Assembly (NCBI GenBank): GCA_035510175.1
Contig: DATKHQ010000061.1
Location: forward strand, 1-37,499
Origin: Candidatus Sulfotelmatobacter sp.
GTDB lineage: Bacteria; Acidobacteriota; Polarisedimenticolia; Polarisedimenticolales; DASRJG01
Direction of reading: 5' to 3'
Length of the DNA: 37,499 bases
The notes below the pieces were generated by a model. It did not search any database, was not told the origin of the DNA, and saw only the letters and a list, made by a program, of their open reading frames with translations. Made by a program: the position numbers and the translations under genes. How positions within the stretch are numbered: position 1 is the first letter of the stretch; every line of letters begins with the position of its first letter. Shown here piece by piece: positions 13,903 to 31,840 of the stretch.

Positions 13903-13975
13903 GACGGAACATGTTGATGGAAGGAACGCGGATGTGCAAAACACTCTTTTCGGGGCTTCGCGATATCCTTGGGAT

Positions 13976-15112: not shown

Positions 15113-15121
15113 GGCACGCGT

Positions 15122-17977
15122 TCAGCTCGACACGATCCTGAGATGACCGCGCCCGATGGAGGCGAGCAGCCTGTCGGCCGGGCTCCGCTTCGCCGGGGGC
15201 TTGCCGTCCGCGCTCACCGCTTCGAGCGCCTTCCGGAGGTCCGCCTGGGACGCCGGGACGTGCCTCCCCGCGGAATCGAACGAGTCCAGGACCAGCAGTG
15301 CGAACGGTGTCTCGCGGCCCGGAAGCGTGCCGGCCTTCGCGAGTCCGGCGAGGTACTCGATCGCCTTAGCCCTCGCCTTGGCGACCCAAGGATCGCCGGG
15401 CAGAGCCGCCGCGGCTTCCGCGAGCGCCCAGGTCGCGAGCACGTGGACGGGAACGTCGGCCGCCACGGCACCGCTGGGCTGTTGTGCCGCCAGGAGTGCG
15501 GCGAGCGCCGGCCTTCCCTCGGATGCGGTGAGATGCCCGTCGTCGGCGAGGTCCGCGAGAACCCGGAGCGCCGCTTCGCGGAGCCGCGCGCGGGCCGAGC
15601 TCGCATCCGAGGAAGGTGCGTTGCCTTCGCCGTCCACGAGCTGCGGCTCGAGCTCGAGCGTGTGTTGATAGAAGCGTCCGGCAACCGGGACATCCTTCAC
15701 CAGCTCCGAACTGAACTTGGTCGCCTGGTTCGACGCCGTGTCTCCGCCTAAGCTGGACGCGAGCATGCCGCTTGAGACAGGCTGTCCCGCCGGCGCCTTT
15801 TTCGCCTTGGGAGGCGGAGGAGGAGGTTGCGCGTAGCCCCCCCGTGCGCGACCGTATTCCACGCCGGCGCCGGCCGTGACGACGGAGACTTCCTCGATCG
15901 AGTCGGAGGCGGCCTGGCTCACGAACTTTCCCGTGAGCGGATCGACGCTGCTCACGCCGGAGACAAGTCCCTTGAAATCGCGGTCCCGGCTTCCCGACAC
16001 ACGTCGGCTCGCAGTGGTATTCGCACCTGAACCGACTCTGTCCTCGGGCTCGTCCTGACCCGGCGACGGGGCCAGGGATCTCGGACCGCCCGTCCCGAAT
16101 ACGCCATCGAAGGAAACGCCCTCGGGCATCGGCAGCGCCTGCTCCACCGTGCGCGGCCGGCCCGCCGGGTTCGCGAGGTGTGAATCGTCGACGGCGACGA
16201 ACGACGTGAACGGGCTCATCAGGCGGAACTCGAGCGCGAGTGCGGTCACCCCGGCCTCCGTCGAGGGGGCGGGCCCTTCCGGGTCGGCCAGGAGCATCTG
16301 CTCGATCCGCCCGCGCGCCCAGATCGCCCCGAGCGCTTCGTGCCGCGGTTCCTTGTCGGGAAGCACGACGGGAATCGACTGTTCCCAGTAGCGGCCGCCG
16401 AGCTTTCCGCGAACCGTCACCGTTCCGGAACTCCCGGCGAGGTAGCGGCCGACGACCGTGAGCGTCTGACCCGACCCGATGTCCGGGAGCGTTTCGGGGG
16501 AGAGGTCGGCGACGGGCAGCGCTCCCCAGTCGATCGCGAGGTCCGTCAGGTAGGGGCGCGTCACCCACGAGCGGAACGCGTCGAGCGCGTCGTCGGCGCT
16601 CTCGTCGGGGCGCACGAAGACGTAGGCGCCGTGACCGAGATCCGCCATGCGCTCGAGGAGGTAGTGGTTCACCGACGAGCCGATGCCGACCGTGTAGATG
16701 CGCGCGCTGCCGACGACCTTGCCGATAGCGCCGAGAATCTCCGGATCGTTGCCGACGTAGCCGTCGGTGAAGAACACGACGATCCGCATCCGGTTCGGAT
16801 CGGGCGGAAGCGCGAACGACGCGCGCATTGCCGCCAGCATCTCCGTCCCGCCGCCTCCCTGGCGCGCGTTCAGCCAGGCGATCGCGGACTCGATGGAGGA
16901 CGCGTCGCTCGGAAGCGGATGCGGCGAGAAGACCTCGTTGTCTCCGGAAAACCGCACGACATTGAAGGTGTCCCGCGGACCCATCTCGTGCAGCGCCCGG
17001 GCGACGAGCCGCTTCGAGGCGTCGAGGGGAATCCCGCTCATGCTCCCGGACGTGTCCACCACGAAGACGATCTCCTTCGGTGCCGCCTCGGTGGGGCCGA
17101 CCTCTCCCCTGGGTTGCACGAGGAGCGTGAAGAACCCGTCGGCTCCGTCCCGGTGCGCGAGCAGCCCGACGGCCGGCTGCTTCGCCGAGACGCTCCACCG
17201 GAGGAGGAAGTCCTTGTTCGGGATCGTGTCGTTCTCCGCGAGGCGGATGCTCGCCGTCGTGGAGTCGCGCCGTTGAACCTCGATGCGATGGCTGGAGCTT
17301 CCGATCTCGCCGATCGGCACGCCCGCGTCGAGGCTCACCGCGATCTCCACGTCGTGTCCCGACCGCGTGCCGGGCGCAAGCACGCTCGGGGTCACTCGGG
17401 CCGGGTTCTTTGCTCCGCCGCCCGGCATGTACCGCGGACCCACGACGAGCGGAAACGTCAACCGGTAGATGCCGCGCTCGTACTTCAGCGTCTCCACGGT
17501 GCGCAAGCGCACCGTGATCGGCTTGCCGGGCTCGAGGTTCGCGACGGACTGCGTGAAGATGTTCGGCCGCTCCTGCTCCAGGAGAGCCCCCTGGTATCCC
17601 GCATCGCGAGCCTGCTCGTAGACCTGCCGCGCCTCGTCGCGGCGGCGGATCTCCCCGCGGATCGTTCGCTCGCCGACCGAGAGCTCGAAGTCGTCGACGG
17701 CCGCCCGGTCGCCCAAGGGGAAGGTGTAGACCGCCTCCACCGGATCGGGGAAGGGGTTCTCGAAGACTTGCTCCACGGTCGCCCGCGCGACGAACGCGGT
17801 CACGTCGATCGAGACCTTCGTGTGCCGTAGGGGCATATCGACCGGCGTCCCGTCGCTGCCCGTGACCCGCAAGGATCCAGGGGTCTCGGAGGCCGCCGGA
17901 GACGCGGCCGCAGGGAAGCCGAGAACGAGCGAGAACAAAGTCAGGAAGGCTGCCGTACCGGTCTTGAGGGAGCTCAT
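15122..17977 (-). CDS. Exported VIT-domain / von Willebrand factor A-domain protein with a long C-terminal extension
   Basis: Signal peptide; VIT-like region (VSIDVTAFVARATVEQVFENP...YTFPL...AVDDFEL); vWA MIDAS motif VVDTSGSMSG. GGAGG lies 6 nt upstream of ATG 17977. Confidence 0.85.
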   Translation of the reverse strand: MSSLKTGTAAFLTLFSLVLGFPAAASPAASETPGSLRVTGSDGTPVDMPLRHTKVSIDVTAFVARATVEQVFENPFPDPVEAVYTFPLGDRAAVDDFELSVGERTIRGEIRRRDEARQVYEQARDAGYQGALLEQERPNIFTQSVANLEPGKPITVRLRTVETLKYERGIYRLTFPLVVGPRYMPGGGAKNPARVTPSVLAPGTRSGHDVEIAVSLDAGVPIGEIGSSSHRIEVQRRDSTTASIRLAENDTIPNKDFLLRWSVSAKQPAVGLLAHRDGADGFFTLLVQPRGEVGPTEAAPKEIVFVVDTSGSMSGIPLDASKRLVARALHEMGPRDTFNVVRFSGDNEVFSPHPLPSDASSIESAIAWLNARQGGGGTEMLAAMRASFALPPDPNRMRIVVFFTDGYVGNDPEILGAIGKVVGSARIYTVGIGSSVNHYLLERMADLGHGAYVFVRPDESADDALDAFRSWVTRPYLTDLAIDWGALPVADLSPETLPDIGSGQTLTVVGRYLAGSSGTVTVRGKLGGRYWEQSIPVVLPDKEPRHEALGAIWARGRIEQMLLADPEGPAPSTEAGVTALALEFRLMSPFTSFVAVDDSHLANPAGRPRTVEQALPMPEGVSFDGVFGTGGPRSLAPSPGQDEPEDRVGSGANTTASRRVSGSRDRDFKGLVSGVSSVDPLTGKFVSQAASDSIEEVSVVTAGAGVEYGRARGGYAQPPPPPPKAKKAPAGQPVSSGMLASSLGGDTASNQATKFSSELVKDVPVAGRFYQHTLELEPQLVDGEGNAPSSDASSARARLREAALRVLADLADDGHLTASEGRPALAALLAAQQPSGAVAADVPVHVLATWALAEAAAALPGDPWVAKARAKAIEYLAGLAKAGTLPGRETPFALLVLDSFDSAGRHVPASQADLRKALEAVSADGKPPAKRSPADRLLASIGRGHLRIVSS

Positions 17978-18163
17978 CGCGACCTCCGCGGCCCGAAAGA
18001 GGGCATCTGGCTGGATAGGACCGATCTATAGCCGGTTGGTTCCCTGTGGGACCGCGGCCTGCGTTCGAAGCGGCGGCGCCCCCGCGCTGGGGGGGATCGC
18101 ACACGTCTTGGGTGAATTCCCGCACCTCCAAAGGCCTCGACCCCATCTCCGTCGCCGGATCGA

Positions 18164-18179
18164 TGGCACACTGATTGCG
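18164..18179 (+). promoter_or_regulatory. Candidate sigma-54 (-24/-12) promoter element TGGCAC-N5-TTGC
   Basis: TGGCACactgaTTGCg matches the RpoN consensus core with correct spacing, in the 202-nt divergent intergenic region ahead of the cytochrome cluster. Caveat: it abuts the first candidate start codon of the NHL gene. Confidence 0.3.
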
Positions 18180-19136
18180 GTGAGTCCGAGAGTGCGCCTT
18201 CTCGCGAACGTCGCCGTCGGCGTAGCGCTTTGCGCGCTCGCCCAGCCGGCAGGGGCGGTGGAGGTCAAATACCTCTACCGGCTGTCGAATTTTTCCGGGG
18301 TCATCCCTTACTCCGATGTGGAGATGTGCGCGGACCCCGCCCATGACGAGATCTATGTCGGCGAAGGCGACCTGATCCGCGTGTTCAACGCCTCCGGGAT
18401 GGAGATCTACGACTTCAGCCACGACGCGATGAGCTACGGCGCGATCCTGGACATCGGCGTCATGCCGAGTGGCGACATCCTGGTCCTTTCCTACAGGCAA
18501 CCGACGGAGGCCAGGGCAGGGGGCTCGCAGGTCACGCGCTACAACTATCGGGGCGAGCCCCTGGGATCATTCGAGGTCCATGGGCTCCCGAGCGAGCTTG
18601 CCGGATTCACACCGAACCGCCTCGCGATCCGCCAGGATTCGCTCGTGTTCGCGAGCACCGCGTCCCTGCTCGTCGTGACAACCGATTTCGAGGGGACGTA
18701 CCGGCGTCACGTCGACCTTCTGGCGACGCTTCCCAAGAACGACAAGGCGAGAGAAGGCGCCGAGCTGGGCGGTTTCTACGTCGATGATCAAGGCGCCATT
18801 CTCTATACGATTCCAACGGCTTTCCGGGCTTTCCGGCTCAAGCCGGACGGCACCGCGGATTCGTGGGGGAAGCCGGGATCGGGCCCCGGAAGCTTCAGCG
18901 TCGTCGGCGCGATCCTGGCCGCGCCCAATGGATACACCTTGGTCGCCGATCGCGCGCGCGGTGCGGTCCTCGTGTTCGACCCGAGCCTGCGTTTCGTCCG
19001 CGAGTTCGGGAATCGGGGGCCAATCGTCGAGCAGCTCAACCGGCCGGGACTGATGGTCTTCGGCCGGGACGGGAAGCTGTATGTGAGTCAGCTCGGCTAC
19101 CACGGCCTCTCGGTCTTCGCGCTCACCACCCCCTGA
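18180..19136 (+). CDS. Exported NHL-repeat beta-propeller protein
   Basis: Signal-like VRLLANVAVGVALCALAQPAGA. Repeated propeller-blade motifs (GDILVLS, FYVDDQGAILY, GYTLVADRARGAVLVFD, GRDGKLYVSQLGYHGLSVF). Start is GTG 18180 or GTG 18192. Confidence 0.7.
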   Translation: MSPRVRLLANVAVGVALCALAQPAGAVEVKYLYRLSNFSGVIPYSDVEMCADPAHDEIYVGEGDLIRVFNASGMEIYDFSHDAMSYGAILDIGVMPSGDILVLSYRQPTEARAGGSQVTRYNYRGEPLGSFEVHGLPSELAGFTPNRLAIRQDSLVFASTASLLVVTTDFEGTYRRHVDLLATLPKNDKAREGAELGGFYVDDQGAILYTIPTAFRAFRLKPDGTADSWGKPGSGPGSFSVVGAILAAPNGYTLVADRARGAVLVFDPSLRFVREFGNRGPIVEQLNRPGLMVFGRDGKLYVSQLGYHGLSVFALTTP

Positions 19137-19187: not shown

Positions 19188-19248
19188 TGAGTGGGCCGCG
19201 GGCATGCGTTGTGCGATAACTCACGCCCACGTCTTTCAAGGAGGACTC

Positions 19249-20559
19249 ATGAAAGCGATCCGGATTCTTCTCATGGCGGGCGTCGCCGGCCTGGCGGTGA
19301 TCGGCCTCTCGCCGGTGTACGCGTTCCACTCCGGTGGCGTCGCCGAATGCGGCGGCTGCCACAGCATGCACGACGCGGCCTCGAACCCGCTCCTCCAGAA
19401 GGGCGATCCGAGCTCGACGTGCCTCAACTGCCACGAGCATGCGGGCGACACCGGCCCGAGCTCGTACCACATCTCGAGCGCCGTCGTCGACATGCCCGAC
19501 GGCGTGCCGCCGAAACAGCGCGGCCCGGCCGGCGACTTCGGCTGGCTGAAGAAGAACTACACCTACACGCTGCGCGGCACCCCGACGACCGACTTCGGGT
19601 ACACCCACGGCCACAACATCGTCGCGACGGATTTCGGGTACGTCGCCGATCCCGTCAACACCACGGCCCCCGGAGGGACGATGCCGTCCAACCAGCTCAG
19701 CTGCGTGAGTTGCCACGACCCGCACGACCGGACGCGTCGCCTCAACGACGGGACCCTCGTTTCGCCGAACCGGAACCAGGGGCAGACCTACGCACCGATC
19801 ATGGGCTCGGGCTCCTACGGTCTCGTTCCGCCGGCCGGTCTCGCGGCGGGCGTCTACCGGATCCTCGGCGACGTGAACTACGTTGCCTTCGACAACACGA
19901 CGTTCCCGGGCGTTCCCTCCGCGGTGACGCCGTCGACGTACAACCGGACGGAATTGGCGACGCAGACCCGCACCGCCTACGGCCACGCGACGACGGGCGG
20001 GTACGCGAGCTGGGGTCAGTGGTGCGCCACGTGCCACCCGAACATGCACAGCAACAACAACGCGCTGGCCCACCCGGTCGACCAGGCGCTCGGCACGACG
20101 ATCTCCAACAACTACAACGCCTACCTCAAGACGGGCGATCTGACCGGAACGCCGACCACGTCGTTCAACTCGTTGGTGCCCTTCACCGAATCGACGTCGG
20201 ACGTCGCCACGCTGGCCGCCCACGCCAAGACCGACGACTCGTACCTGAACGGGCCGGCCTCGAGCGATCGCGTGAACTGCCTCAGCTGCCACCGCGCTCA
20301 CGCGACGGCGTGGACCTACAGCCTCCGGTGGAACGGCGAGAACGAGTTCGTCACGATGGCCGACAGCACCGGCACGGCCGTGTACCCCGGCAAGGACGCC
20401 GTGGGCAACACGCCGGACGGCAAGGCGCTCAACCAGCAGACCCAGATCTTCAAGGGGTACACGGTGGCCGAGATGCAGGCCGGGTACTACGACCGGCCGG
20501 CGATCAAGTTCGCCGCCTATCAGCGCCAGCTCTGCAACAAGTGTCACATCCAGGATTGA
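19249..20559 (+). CDS. omcS: OmcS-family hexaheme c-type cytochrome (nanowire-forming cytochrome homologue)
   Basis: AAGGAGGA lies 5 nt before the ATG. Signal peptide ends VYA|FHSGGVAECGGCHSMH. Six CXXCH motifs (CGGCH, CLNCH, CVSCH, CATCH, CLSCH, CNKCH). Long runs match my recollection of G. sulfurreducens OmcS: CLNCH.HAGDTGPSSYHIS, GDFGW.KK, GHNIVA, TTAPGGT.P.NQL.C.SCHDPH, YRILG, PSTYNRTE..TQTR.AYG, VNCLSCHRAHA, KFA.YQR.LCNKCH..D. Confidence 0.9.
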   Translation: MKAIRILLMAGVAGLAVIGLSPVYAFHSGGVAECGGCHSMHDAASNPLLQKGDPSSTCLNCHEHAGDTGPSSYHISSAVVDMPDGVPPKQRGPAGDFGWLKKNYTYTLRGTPTTDFGYTHGHNIVATDFGYVADPVNTTAPGGTMPSNQLSCVSCHDPHDRTRRLNDGTLVSPNRNQGQTYAPIMGSGSYGLVPPAGLAAGVYRILGDVNYVAFDNTTFPGVPSAVTPSTYNRTELATQTRTAYGHATTGGYASWGQWCATCHPNMHSNNNALAHPVDQALGTTISNNYNAYLKTGDLTGTPTTSFNSLVPFTESTSDVATLAAHAKTDDSYLNGPASSDRVNCLSCHRAHATAWTYSLRWNGENEFVTMADSTGTAVYPGKDAVGNTPDGKALNQQTQIFKGYTVAEMQAGYYDRPAIKFAAYQRQLCNKCHIQD

Positions 20560-20628: not shown

Positions 20629-20672
20629 GATTGCGTGCTCGGACTAGCCTTAGCGTTCCATCCGGGGGCGTC

Positions 20673-22079
20673 ATGTTGAGGGCCTGCATCGCGATCGGGA
20701 TAATCGGGCTCCTCGCCGTCCCTGGAGACCGCGCCGCGCGTCCCGCGGTTGGGGTACCGAGGGAAGGCGGCTACGTCGCCGTTTACGCCAAGCCGCTTTC
20801 ACCCGCGGCCGCCGGACTCACGCTCACGCTGGGCGGAGTCTCCGCCGTCCGGGAGGACGGCACCGCAGCGCCGCTGACGCTGACGATGCCGAGCTATCCC
20901 GATCCGGGCCCTCCCCGGCAACGGCTGCTGGCCTGGGGCTTCGTGCCTGCCGGAGCGTACGCGGGGCTCGCGATCAAGGTGCGCTCGGCCCGCGCGAGGA
21001 CCGACGGCGAGGGGCACGATCTTGCGGTCGGGACGGATGCTCCCGCAGCCAAGCTCCCGTTCCTCGCAGGGCCGCGCAGCGCCCTCGTCGCCACCGTCGA
21101 GCTCGACGTCGGAGCCTCGCGAAAGTCGGCCGACGAGCTCGCACCCGTGTTCGTGGCGACGATCCCGCCGACGCTCGCCTCGGGCCTGACGGGAGCGGTG
21201 ACGAGCCGCGGAACCGGCGTCGTCTCCTTGTTCGACAAGGTTTCGGGTCAGGTCGCCTCCGCGATCGCCGTCGGGCGGGCCCCGTCCGCGATGGCGATCG
21301 ACGACCTGAGAAACCGCCTTTATGTGGCCATCGGCGGGGACGACGCCGTCGCGACCCTCGACTTGCTCTCCCGTTCCGTGCTCGGCGTGGTACGGCTGCG
21401 CGGGGGCGACGAGCCGGTCTCGCTCGGGTTGACTCCGGACCGGCGCACCTTGCTGGTCGCCAACGCGGGCTCCTCGAGCGTCACGGTGTTCGACGCGTCG
21501 GGCCCGACGCTCGTCGAGCGGACGCGCGTCGAGGTCGGGAGCGGCCCGCGCTATCTCCTGGTCGACCGTGCCGGAACGCGGGCGTGGGTGTTCTGCGCCG
21601 ACGAGGACCGGGTGGTCGCACTCACCCTTCCGACGGGCGCTCTCGCCGGATCGGTGTCCTCCCCCGGCGGCCCCATCCGCGGGGATTTCAGCAAGGACGG
21701 GACCCGCCTGTACGTCCTTCACGCGTACTCGGCCTACCTGGACGTCGTGGACGCGTCGACGCTCGCGGTCACGCAGCGCGTGTTCGTCGGGCCGAAGTCG
21801 GTATCCATCAAGGTGGATTCCCAGACGGACAGGATCTACCTCGGGTTCAAGGGCTCGAAATCGATCTCCGTCTACGATCCGGCCGGACTGCTTCCCATCG
21901 ACGAAATCCGGACAGAAGGAGGCGCCGACTTCCTCACGATCGACGGCCAAGGGAACAATCTTTGCGTCATCGATTCCCTCAGGGGCGAGATTCGCCTCGT
22001 CCGGCTCGTCGGGAAGACGGTCGCGGCGCAGGTCGACCTCCCCGAGCCAAGTGAGGTCGCGCTCCTGGGCGAAAGGTGA
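20673..22079 (+). CDS. Exported protein: Ig-like N-terminal domain (DUF4382-like) plus YVTN/YncE-type beta-propeller
   Basis: Signal MLRACIAIGIIGLLAVPG. Repeated roughly 40-residue blades (GRAPSAMAIDDLRNRLYVA, PVSLGLTPDRRTLLVANAGSSSVTVFD, GPRYLLVDRAGTRAWV, FSKDGTRLYVLHAYSAYLDVVD, DSQTDRIYLGF). Confidence 0.8.
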   Translation: MLRACIAIGIIGLLAVPGDRAARPAVGVPREGGYVAVYAKPLSPAAAGLTLTLGGVSAVREDGTAAPLTLTMPSYPDPGPPRQRLLAWGFVPAGAYAGLAIKVRSARARTDGEGHDLAVGTDAPAAKLPFLAGPRSALVATVELDVGASRKSADELAPVFVATIPPTLASGLTGAVTSRGTGVVSLFDKVSGQVASAIAVGRAPSAMAIDDLRNRLYVAIGGDDAVATLDLLSRSVLGVVRLRGGDEPVSLGLTPDRRTLLVANAGSSSVTVFDASGPTLVERTRVEVGSGPRYLLVDRAGTRAWVFCADEDRVVALTLPTGALAGSVSSPGGPIRGDFSKDGTRLYVLHAYSAYLDVVDASTLAVTQRVFVGPKSVSIKVDSQTDRIYLGFKGSKSISVYDPAGLLPIDEIRTEGGADFLTIDGQGNNLCVIDSLRGEIRLVRLVGKTVAAQVDLPEPSEVALLGER

Positions 22080-24286
22080 CGGATTGCGTGGGGAGATCCG
22101 AGCAGAGGCGATTGCGGGGACGGCGGGGCCTTCCGCTCCTCCTCGTGGCGCTCGCGGCGGCGCTCGGCCCGGCCCGACCCGCGGCTGCGGACGACGAGCT
22201 CAACGGGTACCTCGAGCTGACCGGCGCCGCGTCGCGGCTGAACACCGAGGATGCGACCGGGGCGAGCACCGACGAGACCGCGCGATCGTTCCTGCAGCGC
22301 TACAGCCTCAACTTCGCGCACCGCTTCTTTCCGAACCTCGAGTTCCGCGTCGGTGGCCTTTACGAGCACGAGCGTCTGTCGACCGACCTCTCCGGCATCG
22401 AGAGCGTGGGCAACCGCCAGCGCGTCCTTCCGTACGCCCTGTTCACGCTCCGGACGCAGATCGTCCTCGCCGAGATCGGGTACGACCGGCGAACGGAGCG
22501 GTTCGACAACGATCTGTCCGTCTCGAAGCTTACGCAGGAGAACTGGCGGGCGAATTTCGGCTGGAACCCGCTCGATCTCCCGCGACTGCGCCTCGAGCTG
22601 TCCCGGAGGAACACGTTCGACCTGGGGCGAGAGGGGCTGGACACGACGGAGGATCGCGCGCAGCTGGGCATGCGCTACAGCGCGGAGACCTACGAGGTGA
22701 ACTACCGCGGATCGCTGGAGCGCGATACGGACCACATCCACGGCGGGGCCGTGGAGACGAACTTCCAGAGCGCCCACGCGGCCTGGGGGGACGCGTGGCT
22801 CGACCGGCGCCTCACGTTGAGCACGGACTACACGGTGAGCTACCGCGAGACGACGGCGACCGGCTCGAGCGCGGGGGAGATCATCCAGTCCGTGAACGCC
22901 GTCGCCGGCCTCTCGTCGATCGACGACACGCCGGATCACGATCCCCTCAACCCGAATGCCGCGCTGATCGACGGCAACCTGACCGTCGGCGCCGGGGTGG
23001 ACCTGGGCCTCCCCCCGCCGGGAGGGGACATCCGGCCCCGCAACATCGGTCTCGATCTCGGTTTCGCCAATCAGCTCAACACGATCCTGGTGTGGGTCGA
23101 CCAGACGCTCCCGCCGTCGATCGCGGGTTCGTTCTCCTGGAAGATCTACTCGAGCGACGACAACTTGAACTGGACGCTCACCCAGACCCTGGTCACGGCT
23201 CCGTTCGGGCCGTTCGACAACCGGTTCGAGATCCGCTTCCCCGCGCTGGTCACGCGATACGTCAAGCTCGTGGTCTCGCCGCTGTCGCCGATCGTTCCGG
23301 ATGCGACGAGCTGGCCCCAGATCCTCGTGACCGAGCTCGAGCCGCAGCTGCGCACGGCGGCGTCGGGCGTCGAGAACCACACCTCGGAGGTGTCGCAGCT
23401 GTTCAACGGCAACTTCAGGGCACGGCTGCTGAACGTGCCGGCGTTCTACTACGAGCTCGGCTACTTCCTCTCGAATCCCGGCACGGGGCCCACGCAGTGG
23501 ACGCTCTCGAACGGACTGTCCGTGATCCAGGCGCTCAGCCCGATCCTGACCGGACAGGCCCGTCTCTCGCGGGAGGACCGGCAGGAGCGCATCGGCAGGC
23601 AGACCGCATACCTGTTCAGCGGGGCGCTCACCGCGACCCCGATTTCGACCGTCCAGGAAAGCCTGGTGGTCTCGGCGGTGAACGAGCAGGGGGACTTCGG
23701 GCGGGATACCGCATCGGCCCTCTTCTCGAGCGCGGCGGAGCTCTATCGGGGGATCGGCGCCAATCTGGTGGTGGGCCGCTCGGTCATCCGGCCCCACGAG
23801 GGCGGGCAGTCGATTTCCGACACGGGCGAGATCGGCGTCACCCTGAACCCGAACTCGCAGCTGACGGTCAATCTCCTGCTCCAGGATCGGGTGACGGATA
23901 CGACGTTCCCGACGCCGGCTCAGCCCGAGCAGCGCGACGACACGCGCGCGGCGGAGATCGGCGCCGCCTACCGCCCGCTGCGCTCCCTCTACCTTTTCGC
24001 CTCGACACGCGCGGAGCGGAGCAATCAAACCGGGTCCCGGACGCTACGCAACTACGCGCTGAGCTGGGCTCCCTTCCCGGACGGGACGCTTCACTTCAGC
24101 GTGTTCTACGATTCGACCTACCACACGGAGCTGGCCGAGACGGAGCAGACGCTCGTTCCGTCCGTGCGGTGGGACGTCACGTCGCGGATCTACCTCCAGA
24201 CGTCGTATCAGGATCTTCGAACGGATTCGGTCCTCGGGTCGACGCGGACCAAGGTCTGGACGGCGACGGTTCACGCGGCGTTCTAA
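22076..24286 (+). CDS. Predicted outer-membrane beta-barrel protein carrying an internal discoidin (F5/8 type C)-like domain
   Basis: Arg-rich signal peptide; alternating-hydrophobicity strands (FLQRYSLNFAHRFF, LEFRVGGLYEHE, YALFTLRTQIVLAEIGY); C-terminal TKVWTATVHAAF ending in Phe (OMP beta-signal). Start is GTG 22076 (GTGA overlap) or GTG 22088, which has AAGGTGA 8 nt upstream. Confidence 0.7.
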   Translation: MTDCVGRSEQRRLRGRRGLPLLLVALAAALGPARPAAADDELNGYLELTGAASRLNTEDATGASTDETARSFLQRYSLNFAHRFFPNLEFRVGGLYEHERLSTDLSGIESVGNRQRVLPYALFTLRTQIVLAEIGYDRRTERFDNDLSVSKLTQENWRANFGWNPLDLPRLRLELSRRNTFDLGREGLDTTEDRAQLGMRYSAETYEVNYRGSLERDTDHIHGGAVETNFQSAHAAWGDAWLDRRLTLSTDYTVSYRETTATGSSAGEIIQSVNAVAGLSSIDDTPDHDPLNPNAALIDGNLTVGAGVDLGLPPPGGDIRPRNIGLDLGFANQLNTILVWVDQTLPPSIAGSFSWKIYSSDDNLNWTLTQTLVTAPFGPFDNRFEIRFPALVTRYVKLVVSPLSPIVPDATSWPQILVTELEPQLRTAASGVENHTSEVSQLFNGNFRARLLNVPAFYYELGYFLSNPGTGPTQWTLSNGLSVIQALSPILTGQARLSREDRQERIGRQTAYLFSGALTATPISTVQESLVVSAVNEQGDFGRDTASALFSSAAELYRGIGANLVVGRSVIRPHEGGQSISDTGEIGVTLNPNSQLTVNLLLQDRVTDTTFPTPAQPEQRDDTRAAEIGAAYRPLRSLYLFASTRAERSNQTGSRTLRNYALSWAPFPDGTLHFSVFYDSTYHTELAETEQTLVPSVRWDVTSRIYLQTSYQDLRTDSVLGSTRTKVWTATVHAAF
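22934..23346 (+). other. Discoidin/F5-8-type-C-like domain inserted within the barrel ORF
   Basis: AALIDGNLTV..NIGLDLGFANQLNTILVWVDQ..FSWKIYSSDDNLNWTL..RFEIRFPALVTRYVKLVV..ILVTELEP follows the DG-x-T / VDLG / W-Y-S-DG-W / ARYVRL / E-E pattern of discoidin domains. Confidence 0.5.
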
Positions 24287-24299: not shown

Positions 24300-24893
24300 A
24301 TGCGCACGATGAGATCGGTCTCCTACATGGCACTCGCGGTCTCGCTCCTCCCCGCTTCCGGGTGTGCGGGCCGGCACGCCGCCACGAACACCTTTCACGA
24401 GCCCACGATGGACTTCAGCCTCGTGCACACGGTGGCGGTCCTGCCGTTCTCCAACCTCACGCCGACCCAAACGGCGGCCGACCGGGTCCGGGGCGTGTTC
24501 GTCACGATGCTCCAAGCCCAGGGAGGGGAGATGTACGTGCTGCCCCTCGGCGAGGTCCAAAAGGGACTTTCCCGGACGGAGATCCAGCGCGCGGACCAAC
24601 CCTCCGCCGAAGACGTCGTCGTCCTGGGGAAAGCGCTCAGTGCCGACGCGGTGATCACCGGGAGCGTGATGGAGTACGGAGAAGCGCGCTCCGGCTCCGC
24701 TTCGGCGAACTACGTCTCGGTCTCGGCGCAGATGCTGGAGACCAAGACCGGCCGCCTCGTCTGGAGCGCGCAGTCGACGAAGGGGGGAGTGACCGCCGCG
24801 GACCGGATGTTCGGAGGAGGCGGCCAGCCCATGAACGTGATCACCGCCGATGCCGTGAACGAGCTGCTCGACAAGCTCTTCAAGGCGAAGTGA
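24300..24893 (+). CDS. Lipoprotein with a CsgG/LpoB/DUF799-like fold
   Basis: Lipobox LLPASG|C; VAVLPFSNLT....ADAVITGSVMEY pattern typical of the CsgG/LpoB/TolB-N-like family. AAGGA upstream of the ATG. Confidence 0.75.
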   Translation: MRTMRSVSYMALAVSLLPASGCAGRHAATNTFHEPTMDFSLVHTVAVLPFSNLTPTQTAADRVRGVFVTMLQAQGGEMYVLPLGEVQKGLSRTEIQRADQPSAEDVVVLGKALSADAVITGSVMEYGEARSGSASANYVSVSAQMLETKTGRLVWSAQSTKGGVTAADRMFGGGGQPMNVITADAVNELLDKLFKAK

Positions 24894-25960
24894 GCGCCGT
24901 GCTCCCGCTAGGAGCGCCTCTTCTGGCTCTGGCCGCCCTGGCCGGCCCCCTTCGCGTGGCGGTCCTCCCCGTGGAGAACCTCACCGGCCGCGTGCTCGAC
25001 GGTGCTCCGATCGAGCGGGCCTGGCGGGGGGCGCTCGCCGCGAGCGGCATGGAGGTACTGGACGATCCGACGCGTGGGGCCTTGATGGACCGTCATCGGG
25101 TGCGGTACGTGGGCGGCGTCTCGCCGGACCTCGCCACCGCCTTCCGCGAGGAGGCGCAGGTCCAGGCGGTGATGATCACCTCCGTGGAGCGCTGGATCGA
25201 GCACGCGCCTCCGGTCCTCTCGCTGCATGCCCGCCTCGTCTCGACCGAGGCCGAGCCCTCGATCCTCTGGGTCGGCGGCCTCGGAGCGACGGGCGAGGAC
25301 CACCCCGGGTTCCTCGGGCTCGGAGTCGTGGACGACCCGAAGGTGCTTCTCGCGCGGGTGGTCGCGGATCTCGCGGCGTCGGTCAAGGGGGCTGTCTCGG
25401 GCGGGGCCTCCCGCACGCCGTCCGGCGAGCGCCGGTTCCGGCCCAAGCTTGCGTTCGCCAGCGTGGTCGCCGGCGAAGAAGGAGGGTCGCTTCGGGTCGC
25501 CGTGCTTCCCTTCACGAACCGCACGGACCGCCGGCGCGGCGGGGATCTCGTCGCGGCGCACTTCGTCGCGGCGCTCGCCGGGCGCCCCGGTATCCGAGTC
25601 GTGGAGCCCGGCATCGTCCGCGAGGTACTTCTCAAGCTCCGGGTGATCCCCGAAGGAGGGATCCCCTACGCACAGGCCGAGCTGCTCCGCGAGACGCTCG
25701 GGGCCGATCTCGTGCTGATGGGGGAGGTCCTGGATTACAGCGATGCGGACGTCGACGGTCCCCCTCCCATCGTCGATTTCACCGTGCAAGCGCTCGACGC
25801 CGCCCATCGCCGCGTGGCGTGGTCCGCGTTCAGCCACTCCACCGGTACGGACGGCGTCTGGTTCTTCGAGCGGGGCCGGCTCCGGACCGCCCACGCGCTC
25901 GCTGCGGCGATGGCGCGCTCCGCGGTCGAGGCGCTGCTCACCGCGAAAGGAAAGCCGTGA
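24890..25960 (+). CDS. Exported protein with two tandem CsgG/LpoB-like domains
   Basis: Two copies of the motif (RVAVLPVENLTG ... and RVAVLPFTNRTD ... GADLVLMGEVLDY). The GTG start overlaps the upstream stop (GTGA at 24890-24893). Confidence 0.7.
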   Translation: MSAVLPLGAPLLALAALAGPLRVAVLPVENLTGRVLDGAPIERAWRGALAASGMEVLDDPTRGALMDRHRVRYVGGVSPDLATAFREEAQVQAVMITSVERWIEHAPPVLSLHARLVSTEAEPSILWVGGLGATGEDHPGFLGLGVVDDPKVLLARVVADLAASVKGAVSGGASRTPSGERRFRPKLAFASVVAGEEGGSLRVAVLPFTNRTDRRRGGDLVAAHFVAALAGRPGIRVVEPGIVREVLLKLRVIPEGGIPYAQAELLRETLGADLVLMGEVLDYSDADVDGPPPIVDFTVQALDAAHRRVAWSAFSHSTGTDGVWFFERGRLRTAHALAAAMARSAVEALLTAKGKP

Positions 25961-27660
25961 GAGTACGAATCCCCATCCTCGCCGCAGCACTCTCCGCCGG
26001 GCTCGCATCCTGGGCCCTCGCGGCACCGCCGGCGGCATCCTCGTCGCCTCCCGAGCTCCCACTGATCCAGGGGCGGCGGGCGATCGCCACGGTCAACGGC
26101 CAGCCCGTCACATGGGGCGCCTTCCGGGAGGCGCTTGCGTCCGTTCACGAGAACGCGCCGGAGGCCACCAAGCGCGCGAAGCAGGACCCGCAGGCGCTGC
26201 TCGATCGGCTGATCACGGGAAAGCTGATCGTCCAGGAGGCGCGCAACATCGGTCTCGACCATGAGCCGGCGTACACCGCGGCGCTCGAATCGTTTCGGCT
26301 CGACACGCTCCAGAAGATGGTGCTCGACCGTCCGGCCTCCGAGGTCAAGAAGCCGTCCGATGCGGACGTCCGCTCCCTGTACGTCACGCGGGTCGGGGTC
26401 GCGCGGATCGACTCGGTGCTCTTCAAGACCAAGGCCGAGGCGGACGCGTTCTCCGCCGCCGTCAAGGGAGGGCGCGCGTTCGCCGATGCGGCGCGCGCGG
26501 CGCAGGGCTCCGGCGCGACCTGGCAGCCGAACGAGACGATCAAGCTGGCCGAGGCGCAGACCGAGGTCGCGGGTGCGATCGCGGTCCTCCATCCAGGCGA
26601 GACAAGCAAAGCCCTCCAGGTACAGGACGGATGGACGGTGGTCACCCCGCACGAGGTGACGGTCCCCGACGATCCCGTCGCGCGGAAGGAATCCGAGGAT
26701 CAGGCCCTCGACTACGCGCGACTGCAAGCGGTGGGCGCCTACACGCGCGACCTCCGGAAGCGCTACGCGAAGGTGGACGAGGCGCTCCTGGCGAGCCTCG
26801 ACTTCGAGGCGAAGGAGCCCGGCTTCGCGCGGCTCAAGACGGACGAGCGCGTGGTCGCTAGGGTCACCGGCCAGCCGCCGATCACGGTCGCCGAGATCGC
26901 CAAGGCCGTGGAGGCGAATTTCTTCCACGGGCTCGAAGGCGCAATCGCGAAACACCAGGTCAACCCGCGCAAGCCCGTCGCCTTCGACGAGATCCTGGTC
27001 CGGCGTCTGACCGTCGCGGAGGCGACGCGTCTCGGCATCGAGTCCTCGGCCGACTACCGGGAGCGAAAGGAGCAGTTCGAGGATGGGGCGCTGTTCGACG
27101 CGTTCGTGAAGCGCGTCATCGTTCCCGACGTCCGGGTCGCCCCCGCCGAGGCGCGCGCGTACTACGACGCCCACGCGGACAGCTACGCGACCCCCGCGAT
27201 GCTCCGCCTCGATTCCATCGCGTTCGGGAAGCGATCCGACGCGGAGGTCGCCCTCAAGAAGGTCCGCGACGGCGCCGATTTCGGCTGGCTCAAGCAGAAT
27301 GCGGCTGGCCGGACCGACGCGAGCGACGTCATGAATCTTAACGGCGGAGTCTACTCGGTCAACGGCGTCGATCCCGGAATGAACAAGGCGCTCGCCAATC
27401 CCAAGGACGGGGATGCCCGTCTCTTCTCGGCGGACGACGGGACGAGCTACGTGATCCTGGTGCGGGAGGTGTTCCCGCCGAAGATCAAGCCTTTCGAGGA
27501 GGCGCAGGAGAACGCCACGCGTCAGGTCCTGAACGAGAAGCTCAAGAAGTCCCTGGACGACTGGACGAAGAAGCTGAGATCGGCGTACGAAGTGAAGACG
27601 TTCGTGACCCCCGCGCAGCTCGAAGCGCTCGTCAAAAGGGAATTCGGAGTCAAAGCCTGA
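25957..27660 (+). CDS. SurA/PrsA-like periplasmic chaperone with two parvulin (PpiC)-like domains
   Basis: Signal VRVRIPILAAALSAGLASWALA; SurA-type N-terminal helices (LLDRLITGKLIVQEARNIGL); two parvulin-like segments (ARIDSVLFKTKAEADAFSAAVKGGRAFADAA and LRLDSIAFGKRSDAEVALKKVRDGADFGWL). GTGA overlap with the upstream stop. Confidence 0.75.
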   Translation: MRVRIPILAAALSAGLASWALAAPPAASSSPPELPLIQGRRAIATVNGQPVTWGAFREALASVHENAPEATKRAKQDPQALLDRLITGKLIVQEARNIGLDHEPAYTAALESFRLDTLQKMVLDRPASEVKKPSDADVRSLYVTRVGVARIDSVLFKTKAEADAFSAAVKGGRAFADAARAAQGSGATWQPNETIKLAEAQTEVAGAIAVLHPGETSKALQVQDGWTVVTPHEVTVPDDPVARKESEDQALDYARLQAVGAYTRDLRKRYAKVDEALLASLDFEAKEPGFARLKTDERVVARVTGQPPITVAEIAKAVEANFFHGLEGAIAKHQVNPRKPVAFDEILVRRLTVAEATRLGIESSADYRERKEQFEDGALFDAFVKRVIVPDVRVAPAEARAYYDAHADSYATPAMLRLDSIAFGKRSDAEVALKKVRDGADFGWLKQNAAGRTDASDVMNLNGGVYSVNGVDPGMNKALANPKDGDARLFSADDGTSYVILVREVFPPKIKPFEEAQENATRQVLNEKLKKSLDDWTKKLRSAYEVKTFVTPAQLEALVKREFGVKA

Positions 27661-27678: not shown

Positions 27679-29643
27679 ATGAGCCTGCGTGGGTGGGGAT
27701 TCCGGTCTTGGGGGGCGAGCGCTGCTGCGGCGCTCGCGGTCGCCGTCCTGCAGGCCCCGATCCTCGGGGCGGAGACCCGGAAGTTCCAGTCCAAGTCGTG
27801 CATCGACTGCCACGGCGCTTTCGTCCAGAAGCTGGCTCCGCTCAAGGTCTTGCACCCCGGCGTGAAGGAGGGGAATTGCGAGAGCTGCCACCTCCGGCAC
27901 GGCATCGTGCCCAAGCTTCTCTTGAAACAGGAAGGCAACGCGCTCTGTCTGAGCTGCCACGCGAAAGAGACGATCGGGCTCGACAAGGCCAACGTGCACT
28001 CGGCGCTCAAGACGGGGAAGTGCGTCCAGTGTCACGACCCGCACGGCTCGAGCGCCCCCCACCTTCTCGCCGGTGAGGGGGCGGGCGCCTGCACGTCCTG
28101 CCACGACCGCAAAGCGTTCGAGCGGCCGGTCGTGCACGCCGTGCTCAAGACGGAGGGCTGCCGGGCTTGCCACCTCGCGCACAGCTCGTCGGAGGCGAAC
28201 CTGCTCGTCAAGGCGGAGGTCCCGCTCTGCCTGTCGTGCCACGATCCGGGCAAGCCGGCGTTCAAGACCGCGCACGGCGGGTACCCCGTCGAGAAAGCCT
28301 CGTGCGTGGGCTGCCACGATCCCCATTCCGCCGAGCAGCCCAAGCTGCTCAAGGCGAGCGCTCACGCCCCTACCGCGGGCGGGAGCTGCGACGCATGCCA
28401 CTCCGGGGCCACGTCGGCGAAGCCCTTCGGTCTCAAGGCCGAGGGCGCGGCGCTGTGCACCTCGTGCCACGACGCCGCGCAGCTCAAGGCGGGCGGGACC
28501 GTCGTCCACGCCCCGTTCGACTCCGGGGACTGCACGTCGTGCCACGATCCGCACGCCTCGGCCCAACCCAAGCTGCTCGCCCGGAAGGGCAATGAGCTCT
28601 GTACGAGCTGTCACACCGATCAGGGCGTCACGCCCGCGTTCCCGCATCCGGCGGTCGACAACGGCTGCGTGACCTGCCACGCGCCGCACGCGGCCAAGAA
28701 CGCGAAGCTCCTCGAGAAGCCGGGCTCGGAGCTGTGCGCCGACTGCCACGGTGAGATCGTCGCCGCCAAGCCGAAGGTCCCGCATGCCCCGTTCGACGCC
28801 GGCGAGTGCGTCGCCTGCCACGATCCCCATGGGTCCTCGACGAAGGGGATCCTCAAGAACCGCCAGGACCAGGTCTGCTTCACGTGCCATTCGGATCAGG
28901 AGCAGGAGTTCAAGCAGGCGACCGTCCACGCTCCGGTGCTGGCGGGAAGCTGCTCCGGCTGCCACCAGCCTCACGGCGGCACGGAGCCGAAGCTGCTCAA
29001 GGCCTCTGGGGCGGCGCTGTGCGCGAGCTGCCACGAAGACCTGATCAAGGAGGAACCCGGCGGGTCGAACCATCCGCCCTTCGCGTCCGGCGACTGCCTC
29101 ACGTGTCACGTTCCGCATGCGTCGTCCGCGCCGCGCCTGATCGGCCAACGGACCGCGGACCTCTGCTACACCTGCCACTCGGACGTGCAGGACGCGTTGA
29201 AGGCGGGGAAGGTCCGGCATGCCTCGGTCGAGGCGGGCGAGTGCACGAAGTGTCACAGCCCGCACAAGTCGAAGCTTCCGAAGTTGCTGCTGGCTCCGGC
29301 ACCCGATCTGTGCGTCACCTGCCACGCCGCGATCAAGACGAAGCTCGCCTCGGAACAGGTGCACCCTCCGGCTGCCCGCGACTGCCTCCGGTGTCACGCT
29401 CCCCATCAGTCCGCGGAGCCCTCGCTGCTCGTCTCGTCTCAGGGATCGCTGTGCGCCGGGTGTCACGACGTCCGGTCCGAGCCGTTTTCGAAGGCGCACC
29501 TCGGCATTGACCCATCCGTGATGAACTGCGTCAGCTGCCACGAGCCTCACGCGTCGAAGGACCCGAAGCTCTTCAAGCCCCAGGTGCACGCGCCGTTCGA
29601 GTCCGGCGCCTGCGAGGAGTGTCATGTCGTTCCGTCGAAGTGA
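27679..29643 (+). CDS. Multiheme c-type cytochrome, 26 CXXCH motifs (13 paired-CXXCH modules)
   Basis: I counted 26 CXXCH in 654 aa. Signal peptide present. Module of about 50 aa: C-x2-CH-DPH-x5-7-KLL-x5-7-LC-x2-CH-x10-13-VH-x-P-x4-6. Confidence 0.9.
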   Translation: MSLRGWGFRSWGASAAAALAVAVLQAPILGAETRKFQSKSCIDCHGAFVQKLAPLKVLHPGVKEGNCESCHLRHGIVPKLLLKQEGNALCLSCHAKETIGLDKANVHSALKTGKCVQCHDPHGSSAPHLLAGEGAGACTSCHDRKAFERPVVHAVLKTEGCRACHLAHSSSEANLLVKAEVPLCLSCHDPGKPAFKTAHGGYPVEKASCVGCHDPHSAEQPKLLKASAHAPTAGGSCDACHSGATSAKPFGLKAEGAALCTSCHDAAQLKAGGTVVHAPFDSGDCTSCHDPHASAQPKLLARKGNELCTSCHTDQGVTPAFPHPAVDNGCVTCHAPHAAKNAKLLEKPGSELCADCHGEIVAAKPKVPHAPFDAGECVACHDPHGSSTKGILKNRQDQVCFTCHSDQEQEFKQATVHAPVLAGSCSGCHQPHGGTEPKLLKASGAALCASCHEDLIKEEPGGSNHPPFASGDCLTCHVPHASSAPRLIGQRTADLCYTCHSDVQDALKAGKVRHASVEAGECTKCHSPHKSKLPKLLLAPAPDLCVTCHAAIKTKLASEQVHPPAARDCLRCHAPHQSAEPSLLVSSQGSLCAGCHDVRSEPFSKAHLGIDPSVMNCVSCHEPHASKDPKLFKPQVHAPFESGACEECHVVPSK

Positions 29644-30943
29644 CGGCCTCCTCGCCCGGCTCGCGGGAAGCGCCATGGCCTCGGTTTTGCTCGCGGGGCC
29701 GGTCGGTGCCGCGCCTCCGTCCGCGCGCCCGGCCGCCGAGGCGGACGACGCGAAGTTCAAGCTCAAGCCCGGAGCCCACGGCAAGGTCTGTCTCGGCTGC
29801 CATTCCGATTTCGAGGACAAGCTGAAGCTGCCCGCGATCCACACGCCCGTCAAGGCGGGCGCGTGCGTGGATTGCCACAGCCCGCACGCCTCCGACCACG
29901 GGAAGATGCTCGCGAAGCCCCCCGAGGCGATCTGCGTGTCGTGCCACGCCACGATCGTCCCGGCCGAGGCGAAGAGTGTGCACGCGGCGCTGCGGAAGGG
30001 GGGATGCGTCGCTTGCCACGACCCGCACGCCTCGCCGAACAAGAACCAGCTCCTCAAGCCGGTCGGCGAGCTGTGCGTCGGTTGCCATCAGGACATCGGG
30101 GCTCAGATCGCGAAGGTCAAGTTCCACCACCCGCCGGTGAGCACCGGCTGCGTCACCTGCCACGACCCGCATGCGTCGGCGAAGTCGGAGACGCTTCTGG
30201 TGCGCGACCAGGGGTCGCTCTGCGCGTCCTGTCACAAGCCGGACCAGCCGGCGATGACCAAGGCCCACATGGGCTATCCCGTGTCGAAGGGGCGGTGCAC
30301 GTCGTGCCACGACCCCCACGGCTCCGACGCTCAGGCGATGCTCTGGCCGAGCGTGCACAAGCCGGTCGCGACCCGCTCGTGCGGCCAGTGCCACAACGAC
30401 CCGGGGTCCGCGAACGCCCTGAAGACCAAGCGCCAGGGGATCGACGTCTGCCGCGGCTGCCATGGCGAGGTCGTGGGCGACGCGATGAACGCAAAGCGCC
30501 TCCACTGGCCGGTGGCGGACAAGATCGCGTGCCTGAACTGCCACGGTCCGCACGCGACCAAGGCGCCGAAGCTCGTGCGCGGGCCGCTGACATCCGTGTG
30601 CGGAAACTGCCACGCCGACACGATCCGGCGTCAGGAGCGCTCGGAAACCAAGCACCCGCCGGTCGAGTCGGGAGACTGCACGAGCTGTCACGCGCCCCAC
30701 GGATCGGACAACCCGTTCCTGCTCGCCGCCCCCGACGAGCTTCAGCTGTGCGGGACCTGTCACGACTGGCAGAACCACACCGGGCACCCGATCGGTCCGA
30801 AGGCGGTGGACCCCCGCAACAAGAACCTCACCGTGAGCTGCGAGAGCTGCCATCGCGCCCACGGCACGGAGTTCAAGCACTTCGCGCATCTGGACACGAA
30901 GGGGGACCTCTGTGTCCAGTGCCACGAAAGGTTCCGGAGGTAA
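29624..30943 (+). CDS. Multiheme c-type cytochrome, 16 CXXCH motifs
   Basis: I counted 16 CXXCH in 439 aa with the same paired module. ATG 29624 is preceded by GAGGAG (29614-19) and overlaps the upstream gene by 20 nt. Alternative ATG at 29675. Confidence 0.85.
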   Translation: MSFRRSDGLLARLAGSAMASVLLAGPVGAAPPSARPAAEADDAKFKLKPGAHGKVCLGCHSDFEDKLKLPAIHTPVKAGACVDCHSPHASDHGKMLAKPPEAICVSCHATIVPAEAKSVHAALRKGGCVACHDPHASPNKNQLLKPVGELCVGCHQDIGAQIAKVKFHHPPVSTGCVTCHDPHASAKSETLLVRDQGSLCASCHKPDQPAMTKAHMGYPVSKGRCTSCHDPHGSDAQAMLWPSVHKPVATRSCGQCHNDPGSANALKTKRQGIDVCRGCHGEVVGDAMNAKRLHWPVADKIACLNCHGPHATKAPKLVRGPLTSVCGNCHADTIRRQERSETKHPPVESGDCTSCHAPHGSDNPFLLAAPDELQLCGTCHDWQNHTGHPIGPKAVDPRNKNLTVSCESCHRAHGTEFKHFAHLDTKGDLCVQCHERFRR

Positions 30944-30946
30944 CCC

Positions 30947-31840
30947 ATGGCCCGAACCGCCGGAGCCGGACTGACGATGCTCGCCGTGCTGCTCGGCGCG
31001 CCCGCCGCGAGCGCGGAGGGAGTCAAGCTGCGGCCGGGACCGGGAATCTACGCCGACGCGAAGAACGCCCCCCTCAGCCTGCCGGAGGGCGTCGCGTGCG
31101 CCGCGACGTCGCTCGTCGTCGCCGACACCGGACACGGCCGCTTCGTCATATACGAGCTGGCCGATCGCCTCGCCACGCCGAAGACCGACTTTCAGGTGCC
31201 CGAGGTTCCCTACCCGATCCGCGTCCGCCTCGACGCGCACGGCGAGATCCTCGCCCTGGATGGAAAATCGCGGCGCATCGCAAGGCTCACCGCCGCCGGC
31301 GCGTTCCAGGGATTCGTCGGCGTGGCCGACGCGCCCGAACCCGTGATCCGGAGCTTCGCCGTCGGCGCCGACGGCCGCCTCTACGTCCTCGACATCGCCG
31401 GGGAGCGGGTGCTCGTGACGGACCCGGCCGGGAAGGTCGAGCGCCGGGTCGCCCTTCCCGCGGACTGCCGGTTCCCCTCGGACGTGACGGTCGATGCCCA
31501 GGGGCGCCTCTACGTGCTCGACAGCGTCGGTGCGCGGATCTTCGCCGCGGCCGCCGGCAAGGCGGAATTCGTCGCGATCGGAGCGAGCCTGAAGGATGAT
31601 CTCGCGTTCGCGACAAGCCTCGGCCTCGACTCCGCGGGGCACCTCGTCGTGATCGACCAGACGGGCGGCGGGATCGTGTTCCTGTCGACGGACGGCTCCT
31701 TCCGCGGGCGGCAGTCGGGGATGGGCTGGACCGACGGGCTGTTGCGCTGGCCGTCCTCGGTGTGCAGCGACGGCCGTGGCGGGCTGTACGTCGCGGATCG
31801 CGAGAACGACCGCATCGCGGTTTTCACCGAGGTGCCCTGA
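30947..31840 (+). CDS. Exported NHL-repeat beta-propeller protein
   Basis: GGAGG lies 8 nt upstream. Signal MARTAGAGLTMLAVLLGAPAASA. Blades include LVVADTGHGRFVIY, DGRLYVLDIAGERVLVTD, QGRLYVLDSVGARIF, GHLVVIDQTGGGIVF, GGLYVADRENDRIAVF. Confidence 0.8.
   Translation: MARTAGAGLTMLAVLLGAPAASAEGVKLRPGPGIYADAKNAPLSLPEGVACAATSLVVADTGHGRFVIYELADRLATPKTDFQVPEVPYPIRVRLDAHGEILALDGKSRRIARLTAAGAFQGFVGVADAPEPVIRSFAVGADGRLYVLDIAGERVLVTDPAGKVERRVALPADCRFPSDVTVDAQGRLYVLDSVGARIFAAAAGKAEFVAIGASLKDDLAFATSLGLDSAGHLVVIDQTGGGIVFLSTDGSFRGRQSGMGWTDGLLRWPSSVCSDGRGGLYVADRENDRIAVFTEVP

Follow-up and report, generated by a model that had tools for sequence, protein, structure and literature searches.

A probable OscE ortholog with a discoidin-fold insert in its predicted outer-membrane barrel, encoded beside an OmcS-like cytochrome gene in Candidatus Sulfotelmatobacter sp.

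The window analysed here, a stretch of 37,499 nucleotides from Candidatus Sulfotelmatobacter sp. (contig DATKHQ010000061.1, positions 1 to 37,499), contains a block of genes that follows an OmcS-like hexahaem cytochrome gene; within this block an open reading frame (ORF; 22076-24286, + strand) encodes a 736-amino-acid (aa) protein, the target of this study, which is very probably an ortholog of the nanowire secretion protein OscE. Its GC content at third codon positions (GC3) is 0.90 in a window of ~69% GC, which argues that the frame is a real gene, and its GTG start shares the tetranucleotide GTGA with the stop of the upstream gene. The N-terminus resembles a signal peptide when judged by eye (aa 1-38; 22076..22189, + strand): a basic stretch is followed by the hydrophobic core LPLLLVALAAAL and a putative cleavage site between PAAA and DD, and in the structural model described below this region has a low predicted local distance difference test (pLDDT) score with a helix at aa 15-28, the barrel beginning at aa 41. 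The protein ends in ...VHAAF, with Phe as the terminal residue. Searched against a collection of 5.8 billion proteins, the target had 194 full-length relatives of ~700-760 aa, all unnamed. In an exhaustive profile search, 1,445 cluster representatives (clustering at 50% identity) passed E<=1e-3, of which 826 also passed E<=1e-30; lengths were uniform, except for fragments, among the matches listed. A second OscE copy inside the window was looked for and ruled out.

The genes around the target, all on the + strand, were assigned from profile matches, haem-binding motifs and gene order. An NHL-repeat beta-propeller protein (17820..19136), similar to the NHL domains of TRIM71/Thin in the PDB (E ~1e-15) and syntenic in most of the 65 loci compared below, precedes the OmcS-like gene (19204..20559), whose product is a putative nanowire subunit of the OmcS/OscC type with six CxxCH motifs and matches OmcS (PDB 6ef8_A; phmmer E 1.6e-106) with mature residues 1-407 covered; the nanowire context that the initial annotation had assumed is thus borne out. 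This protein carries the exact mature OmcS N-terminus, FHSGGVAEC..., after a signal peptide ending in VYA, and aligns to the last OmcS residue. An OscD-like beta-propeller (20631..22079; Pfam YNCE-like propeller, E 7e-13) lies directly upstream of the target in the window, in related loci and in Geobacter anodireducens. Downstream follow an OscF-like small lipoprotein of GNA1162/LpoB/CsgG-like fold (24300..24893; Pfam GNA1162-like E 2.8e-8, LpoB E 7e-5), with a lipobox-like motif in which LLPASG precedes the cysteine, and an OscG-like 356-aa protein (24890..25960), both syntenic across the loci. The OscG-like protein had no Pfam match and apparently comprises two OscF-like domain copies: its two LRVAVLPxxNxT motifs, more precisely LRVAVLP(V/F)xN(L/R)T, lie near the N-terminus and in mid-protein and match VAVLPFSNLT of the OscF-like protein, which gives OscG the look of an OscF (GNA1162/LpoB/CsgG-like) domain duplicated in tandem.

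The remainder of the block consists of an OscH-like SurA-type peptidyl-prolyl isomerase chaperone (25957..27660; Pfam Rotamase_2, E 4.8e-19, and SurA_N; syntenic), an OscI-like cytochrome with 26 CxxCH motifs, hence 26 haems (27679..29643; Pfam Paired_CXXCH_1, E 1.4e-149), an OscJ-like cytochrome with 16 (29624..30943; Paired_CXXCH_1, E 2.9e-85), and an NHL-repeat protein (30944..31840; Pfam NHL, E 8.7e-18) that closes the eight-gene block in the position of GSU2493 and is found in the same place in G. anodireducens (301 aa). For Geobacter, GSU2495 has been described as a protein of ~70 kDa with 26 haems (bioRxiv 10.1101/2025.11.06.686851). GTGA start/stop overlaps occur at 22076-22079, 24890-24893 and 25957-25960, at the starts of OscE, OscG and OscH, which suggests translational coupling of OscD with OscE and of OscF, OscG and OscH.

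Gene order was compared across 65 loci of GTDB species representatives, retrieved with an 8-sequence alignment; they span Acidobacteriota, Nitrospirota, Thermodesulfobacteriota, Anaeromyxobacteraceae, Rokubacteria and others, with no Geobacter locus among them. The order OmcS-like, OscD, OscE, OscF, OscG, OscH, OscI, OscJ, NHL is kept in the 65 loci wherever the contig reaches far enough. Geobacter-like metagenome loci (L066, for example) were fetched separately with the G. sulfurreducens OmcS sequence, and one of their OscE proteins, used as a query, led to a 90%-identity cluster that includes G. anodireducens WP_066358294 and G. sulfurreducens AAR35872.1/WP_010943136.1. In G. anodireducens the locus comprises OmcS, OmcT, a 1017-aa gene, a hexahaem cytochrome, a propeller, a barrel (725 aa), a GNA1162-like lipoprotein, a 392-aa protein, a peptidyl-prolyl isomerase, a 660-aa protein, a cytochrome and an NHL protein. 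The target aligned with AAR35872.1 over 720 aa (BLASTP, 35% identity, E 3e-120), beginning at aa 42 of the target and reaching its final residue, with the insert well conserved within the alignment, and with the G. anodireducens ortholog at E 9e-122. By gene order AAR35872.1 occupies the OscE position of the osc operon, and we take AAR35872.1/WP_010943136.1 to be locus tag GSU2499 (OscE) from that order and from the accession numbering. Because the homology runs from end to end and the gene order is shared, we consider the target very probably orthologous to OscE and an outer-membrane component of the OmcS nanowire machinery; by its sequence, it is an additional member of an already described family whose architecture was already known. 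The claim of the initial annotation that no characterised component has this architecture therefore fails, since the G. sulfurreducens homolog shares it and the proteins of the Geobacter cluster already bear the UniRef name 'F5/8 type C domain-containing protein'. According to two reports, the osc (omcS companion) operon of G. sulfurreducens provides OscH for folding, OscE, OscF and OscG for secretion and OscD for filament morphology, and an eight-gene 'nanowire secretion' block, GSU2500-GSU2493, follows the OmcS-like gene GSU2501 (PMC13194489; bioRxiv 10.1101/2025.11.06.686851).

Many Acidobacteriota/Vicinamibacteria loci contain ~3 kb of extra sequence between OscF and OscG (L023, positions 12734-15910; also L021, L027-L031, L035, L037, L039, L042, L043, L048, L049 and L052), enough to hold one or two additional genes that neither the window nor Geobacter has.

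The fold of the target was predicted with AlphaFold2 from a 30-sequence alignment of homologs with 32-60% identity, giving a full-length model with a pLDDT of 86.7 and a predicted template modelling score (pTM) of 0.66. Secondary structure assigned to this model with DSSP placed 11 long strands in aa 41-263 and 17 more in aa 433-735, 28 strands in total, on either side of a separate domain (aa 264-432). The N-terminal barrel segment, strands b1-b11, corresponds to 22196..22864 (+ strand), and the C-terminal segment, strands b12-b28 (aa 433-736 with the stop codon), to 23372..24286 (+ strand). DSSP splits aa 108-126 at the conserved Pro119; direct-coupling analysis of 345-355 homologs, however, gave a single b3-b4 registry (i+j=213) on both sides of this residue and a single b4-b5 registry (i+j ~254-259, with one outlier at 265), with no hairpin signal within aa 108-126, and these residues were therefore counted as one strand (b4) in the total of 28. 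Antiparallel coevolution pairs between b11 and b12, the strands that flank the separate domain, ranked 2, 90, 119 and 141, and closure of the barrel between b1 and b28 received weak coevolution support (3 pairs).

In a Foldseek search the full-length model matched large closed outer-membrane barrels at probability 1.0 with template modelling (TM) scores of only 0.19-0.34; TonB-dependent transporters were at the top, and MtrB, the ushers PapC/FimD and SlpA were also found. The combination of maximal probability and low TM-scores indicates a large barrel without a close solved relative. No NCBIfam model matched the protein, and the Pfam and NCBIfam profiles for ushers (PF00577), MtrB/PioB porins and TonB-dependent receptors or their plugs gave no match even at E<=10. 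Taken together, the even strand number, the closed-barrel matches, the terminal aromatic residue and the signal peptide judged by eye support a predicted outer-membrane beta-barrel of about 28 strands, in agreement with the initial annotation, which had described the protein as an outer-membrane barrel.

The orientation of the barrel was deduced from residue composition across the family. Within the strands, hydrophobic residues make up 52% of the eight positions of each strand closest to the termini face, aromatic residues 17% and charged residues 12%, compared with 27%, 8% and 30% of the remaining strand residues; the membrane belt should therefore adjoin the termini, with the barrel rising as a polar chimney on the opposite face. 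If the termini are periplasmic, as in the usual topology, the insert, which follows the odd-numbered strand 11, would form extracellular loop L6 between b11 and b12, on the face opposite both termini and seated on the tall polar chimney. This placement favours none of the roles named in the initial annotation (plug, collar, surface or mineral binder) over the others. Both the strand number and the face of the insert had been left to structure prediction by the initial annotation; the model now gives a count for the former, and strand parity and composition point to the outside for the latter. All loops besides the insert are 2-8 residues long and almost invariant in length: on both barrel faces (22196-24283) they mostly vary by 0-2 residues in the 30 homologs, which is unusual for the extracellular loops of outer-membrane proteins. 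Application of the established geometry formula with n=28 and a shear of about n yielded an expected C-alpha diameter of ~49 A and a lumen of roughly 3.7-3.9 nm, so that the predicted OscE lumen would be close to the width of the OmcS filament, ~4 nm (PMC6584659).

The domain in loop L6 (aa 264-432; 22865..23371, + strand) was examined by separate modelling, structure comparison, Pfam searches of homologs and conservation analysis. Modelled alone it reached a pLDDT of 95.9 and a pTM of 0.90, and the top 14 Foldseek matches in the PDB were all CBM32 or F5/8 type C modules, or enzymes bearing one, which also dominated the rest of the top 50; the best of them (4zy9, 4zxe, 2v72, 4lks and others) had E 2e-6 to 1e-4, probability 1.0 and target TM-scores of 0.5-0.7. 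On the Foldseek comparison of the domain model, the insert thus has a discoidin/CBM32 (galactose-binding-domain-like) fold. The discoidin-like jelly roll in a barrel loop that had been proposed from the letters alone is therefore supported, and its extent, given as aa 287-423, is slightly wider at aa 264-432. Sequence profiles gave a more divided answer. In the target, Pfam F5_F8_type_C (PF00754; E 0.008, 16.7 bits) and F5_F8_type_C_2 (PF22633; E 0.016, 16.2 bits) scored below their cut-offs of 28.2 and 27.8 bits, and G. sulfurreducens OscE, at 13.4 bits with the F5_F8_type_C profiles, also stayed below threshold; across 30 homologs, F5_F8_type_C_2 matched 24 (best E 3.4e-6) and F5_F8_type_C matched 16 (best E 5.3e-5). 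The hidden Markov model (HMM) search envisaged in the initial annotation thus found the discoidin family in the homologs and only sub-threshold traces of it in the target. Because of these scores we call the insert discoidin-fold or CBM32-like and not a member of the curated family. A profile of the insert found no PDB sequence at E<=1, so the fold relationship is visible by structure alone. As to a carbohydrate-binding site and a structural Ca2+ site, the invariant D299 (in IDGN) and E420 (in VTELE) show no more than a resemblance to the usual structural motifs.

The insert is the best conserved region of the OscE-family protein, its mean pairwise identity of 53% exceeding the 33% of the N-terminal barrel segment and the 36% of the C-terminal one. 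HMMs for the three parts of the protein all matched 86 of 97 homologous ORFs, and nine of the other 11 were short fragments at contig ends or from split genes. The insert is again the best conserved part in L064 and L065, the most distant of the loci, and it is well conserved in G. sulfurreducens itself. The reverse pattern is seen in a Geobacter-like metagenomic clade (L066, L079, L086 and L124) with two OmcS paralogs upstream, where the barrel is well conserved and the insert has strongly diverged, with extra loops, while retaining its position and core motifs; the insert HMM matched the OscE genes of L066 (11484-13748), L086 (14486-16756) and L124 (9659-11980) at E 2e-14, 2e-12 and 7e-18, respectively, and gave no match in L079 (7162-9486).

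For the Geobacter cluster, Shen et al. (2025, Cell Chem Biol 32:239), cited in both reports on the operon, reportedly wrote of a 'channel-like OscEFG', with a proposed requirement for OmcS secretion. With function carried over from the Geobacter literature, we interpret the target as probably the OscE-ortholog outer-membrane barrel of an OscEFG module that exports and/or mounts OmcS-type cytochrome nanowires. In such a module the barrel would be the pore, OscF and OscG would work from the periplasm, and the insert could be an extracellular lid and/or a docking collar for the nanowire base. This last role, as lid or filament dock, is put forward tentatively; it is favoured because the insert is the sole folded element of OscE able to close the mouth or hold a filament, all other loops being minimal, and because it is likely to face outward. 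A third reason is that the insert is more constrained than the barrel, which suggests that its partner is a conserved protein and not variable glycans. A more elaborate version, which we regard as doubtful but worth stating, is that the insert is both an extracellular gate and an anchoring collar: it would cap the 28-strand pore at rest and then grip the first OmcS-type subunit, fixing the filament to the cell and aligning it with the periplasmic haem chain (OscI/OscJ).

Several points weigh against the preferred interpretation of the barrel and its insert. Surface-exposed domains are seldom so well conserved, and the insert could just as well be buried. Comparison of the distance matrix of the insert with those of OmcS, OscD, OscF, OscG and OscH (mirror-tree/Mantel, controlled for the barrel) gave partial correlations of 0.20-0.35 with no standout partner, and insert-to-barrel coevolution pairs among the 345-355 homologs were at noise level and did not place the insert. 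Its predicted position relative to the lumen is derived from strand parity and composition, with a full-length pTM of only 0.66.

Other functions of the barrel and its insert were weighed against the same evidence. The target could be an MtrB/OmbB-like sheath of a porin-cytochrome conduit, in which a multihaem cytochrome of the cluster, OscI (26 haems) or OscJ (16 haems), runs through the barrel and passes electrons to the filament while the insert docks an extracellular cytochrome as MtrC docks on MtrAB. MtrB (6r2q_B) is indeed among the best full-length structural matches, with one of the highest query TM-scores (0.32), both faces have minimal loops, as MtrB-type barrels do, and OscI and OscJ recur in the conserved block; however, so low a TM-score reflects generic similarity between large barrels, the MtrB/PioB-type profiles of Pfam and NCBIfam find no match, and the literature gives OscE, OscF and OscG a part in secretion, not conduction (PMC13194489). 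We hold a conduit, which would be compatible with export, to be rather unlikely.

The structural neighbours of the insert raise a different prospect, namely that it is a true lectin, a surface CBM32 domain that binds a mineral or a glycan (for example lipopolysaccharide, exopolysaccharide or a glycosylated filament) and tethers the export site to matrix or substrate. Its best structural matches are all carbohydrate-binding CBM32 domains (for galactose, chitosan, alginate and fucose), and it is predicted to face outward; this has to be set against the sub-threshold CBM32 sequence similarity, the lack of any PDB sequence match to the insert profile at E<=1, and the strong conservation of the insert across phyla whose surface glycans differ, and on balance we think it unlikely. 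Still more of a stretch is a periplasm-facing plug like that of PapC/FimD, occluding the lumen from below and swinging out on activation. The 24-strand usher barrels do have a beta-sandwich plug set between two strands, and PapC and FimD are among the structural matches, yet the usher plug follows the even strand b6, whereas the insert follows the odd strand b11 of 28, opposite the termini and the hydrophobic belt, and the Pfam Usher profile is not matched; a plug is accordingly improbable. That the target is a generic nutrient porin or a transporter of the TonB-dependent type lying near cytochrome genes by chance has next to nothing in its favour beyond the TonB-dependent transporters at the top of the Foldseek matches, and is contradicted by the absence of plug or receptor Pfam matches, by 28 strands where such transporters have 22, and by synteny with OmcS-like and osc genes in 65 loci.

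The preferred reading, an OscE barrel that exports and/or mounts nanowires, makes the window an ordinary instance of a published and widespread system, and the new points are modest: the placement of the insert between b11 and b12, its high conservation and its presence across the family. The window supplies a clear candidate ortholog of OscE from a high-GC, non-Geobacter lineage, and the comparative data mark aa 264-432 as the region of the barrel under the strongest constraint, and one that probably faces the surface, a specific target for work on export, gating and anchoring; the remaining interest lies in the role of this conserved, probably extracellular insert. Should it prove to be gate and collar, a CBM32 fold would for the first time be seen serving as a filament-docking lid, and the anchoring of nanowires and their wiring to the cell would have a physical explanation. 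A porin-mounted model has been discussed for OmcS (bioRxiv 10.1101/2025.10.22.684050), and the crossing of, and attachment to, the outer membrane by cytochrome nanowires has been called speculative (PMC12307469; bioRxiv 10.1101/2025.10.22.684050).

Two further features of the window lie outside the block. About 2 kb downstream of it, an ORF of >1253 aa (33739-37497, + strand) that runs past the window end contains Trypsin_2, proprotein-convertase P-domain and purple-acid-phosphatase N-terminal domains. In Geobacter the serine protease OzpA matures the nanowire subunit OmcZ; a link of this protease-type ORF to nanowire maturation is speculative. Just upstream of the NHL and OmcS-like genes, a divergent gene (15122-17977, - strand) encodes a 951-aa protein with VIT and von Willebrand factor A domains.

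Comparison with known systems places the target among several large barrels and brings it closest to Geobacter. Ushers export and anchor a polymerising fibre, and PapC and FimD (PDB 2vqi and 3rfz), which match the model at probability 1.0, are likewise large outer-membrane barrels interrupted by a beta-sandwich; they differ in having 24 strands rather than ~28, a periplasmic plug after an even strand rather than a probably extracellular insert after b11, and N- and C-terminal periplasmic domains that the target lacks, and they show no sequence or Pfam relationship to it. MtrB (6r2q_B) is also a large, short-loop barrel encoded in an extracellular-electron-transfer locus, but its 26 strands are not interrupted by a folded domain, and it sheathes the decahaem MtrA and has no detectable sequence homology with the target. 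SprA, the translocon of type 9 secretion, is a very large outer-membrane barrel of 36 strands in which folded inserts between strands cap the extracellular end and partner proteins plug the periplasmic one; it was absent from the best 50 structural matches of the target model, and no relationship was detected. The insert itself shares with CBM32 domains, such as the Paenibacillus chitosan-binding DD1 (4zxe) and the Clostridium perfringens NanJ CBM32 (2v72), a jelly-roll fold (E 2e-6 to 1e-5; target TM 0.64-0.70) and adjacent N- and C-termini, which suit an insertion domain; identity is only 14-20%, the insert has the family-specific conserved loops AGLSxIDDTP and LGLPPPGGDxRPRN, and it sits in a membrane-barrel loop instead of being appended to an enzyme. 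Relative to Geobacter, the host of the target has a high GC content (69%) and its nearest named relatives are Acidobacteriota metagenome-assembled genomes at ~40% identity, and the window has one OmcS-like gene in place of omcS, omcT and oscC and lacks the 1017-aa spermine-synthase-like gene. The Geobacter protein taken as GSU2499 nevertheless aligns with the target from end to end, central insert included (725 and 736 aa), and both lie between an OscD propeller and an OscF lipoprotein in a block that follows an OmcS-like hexahaem cytochrome.

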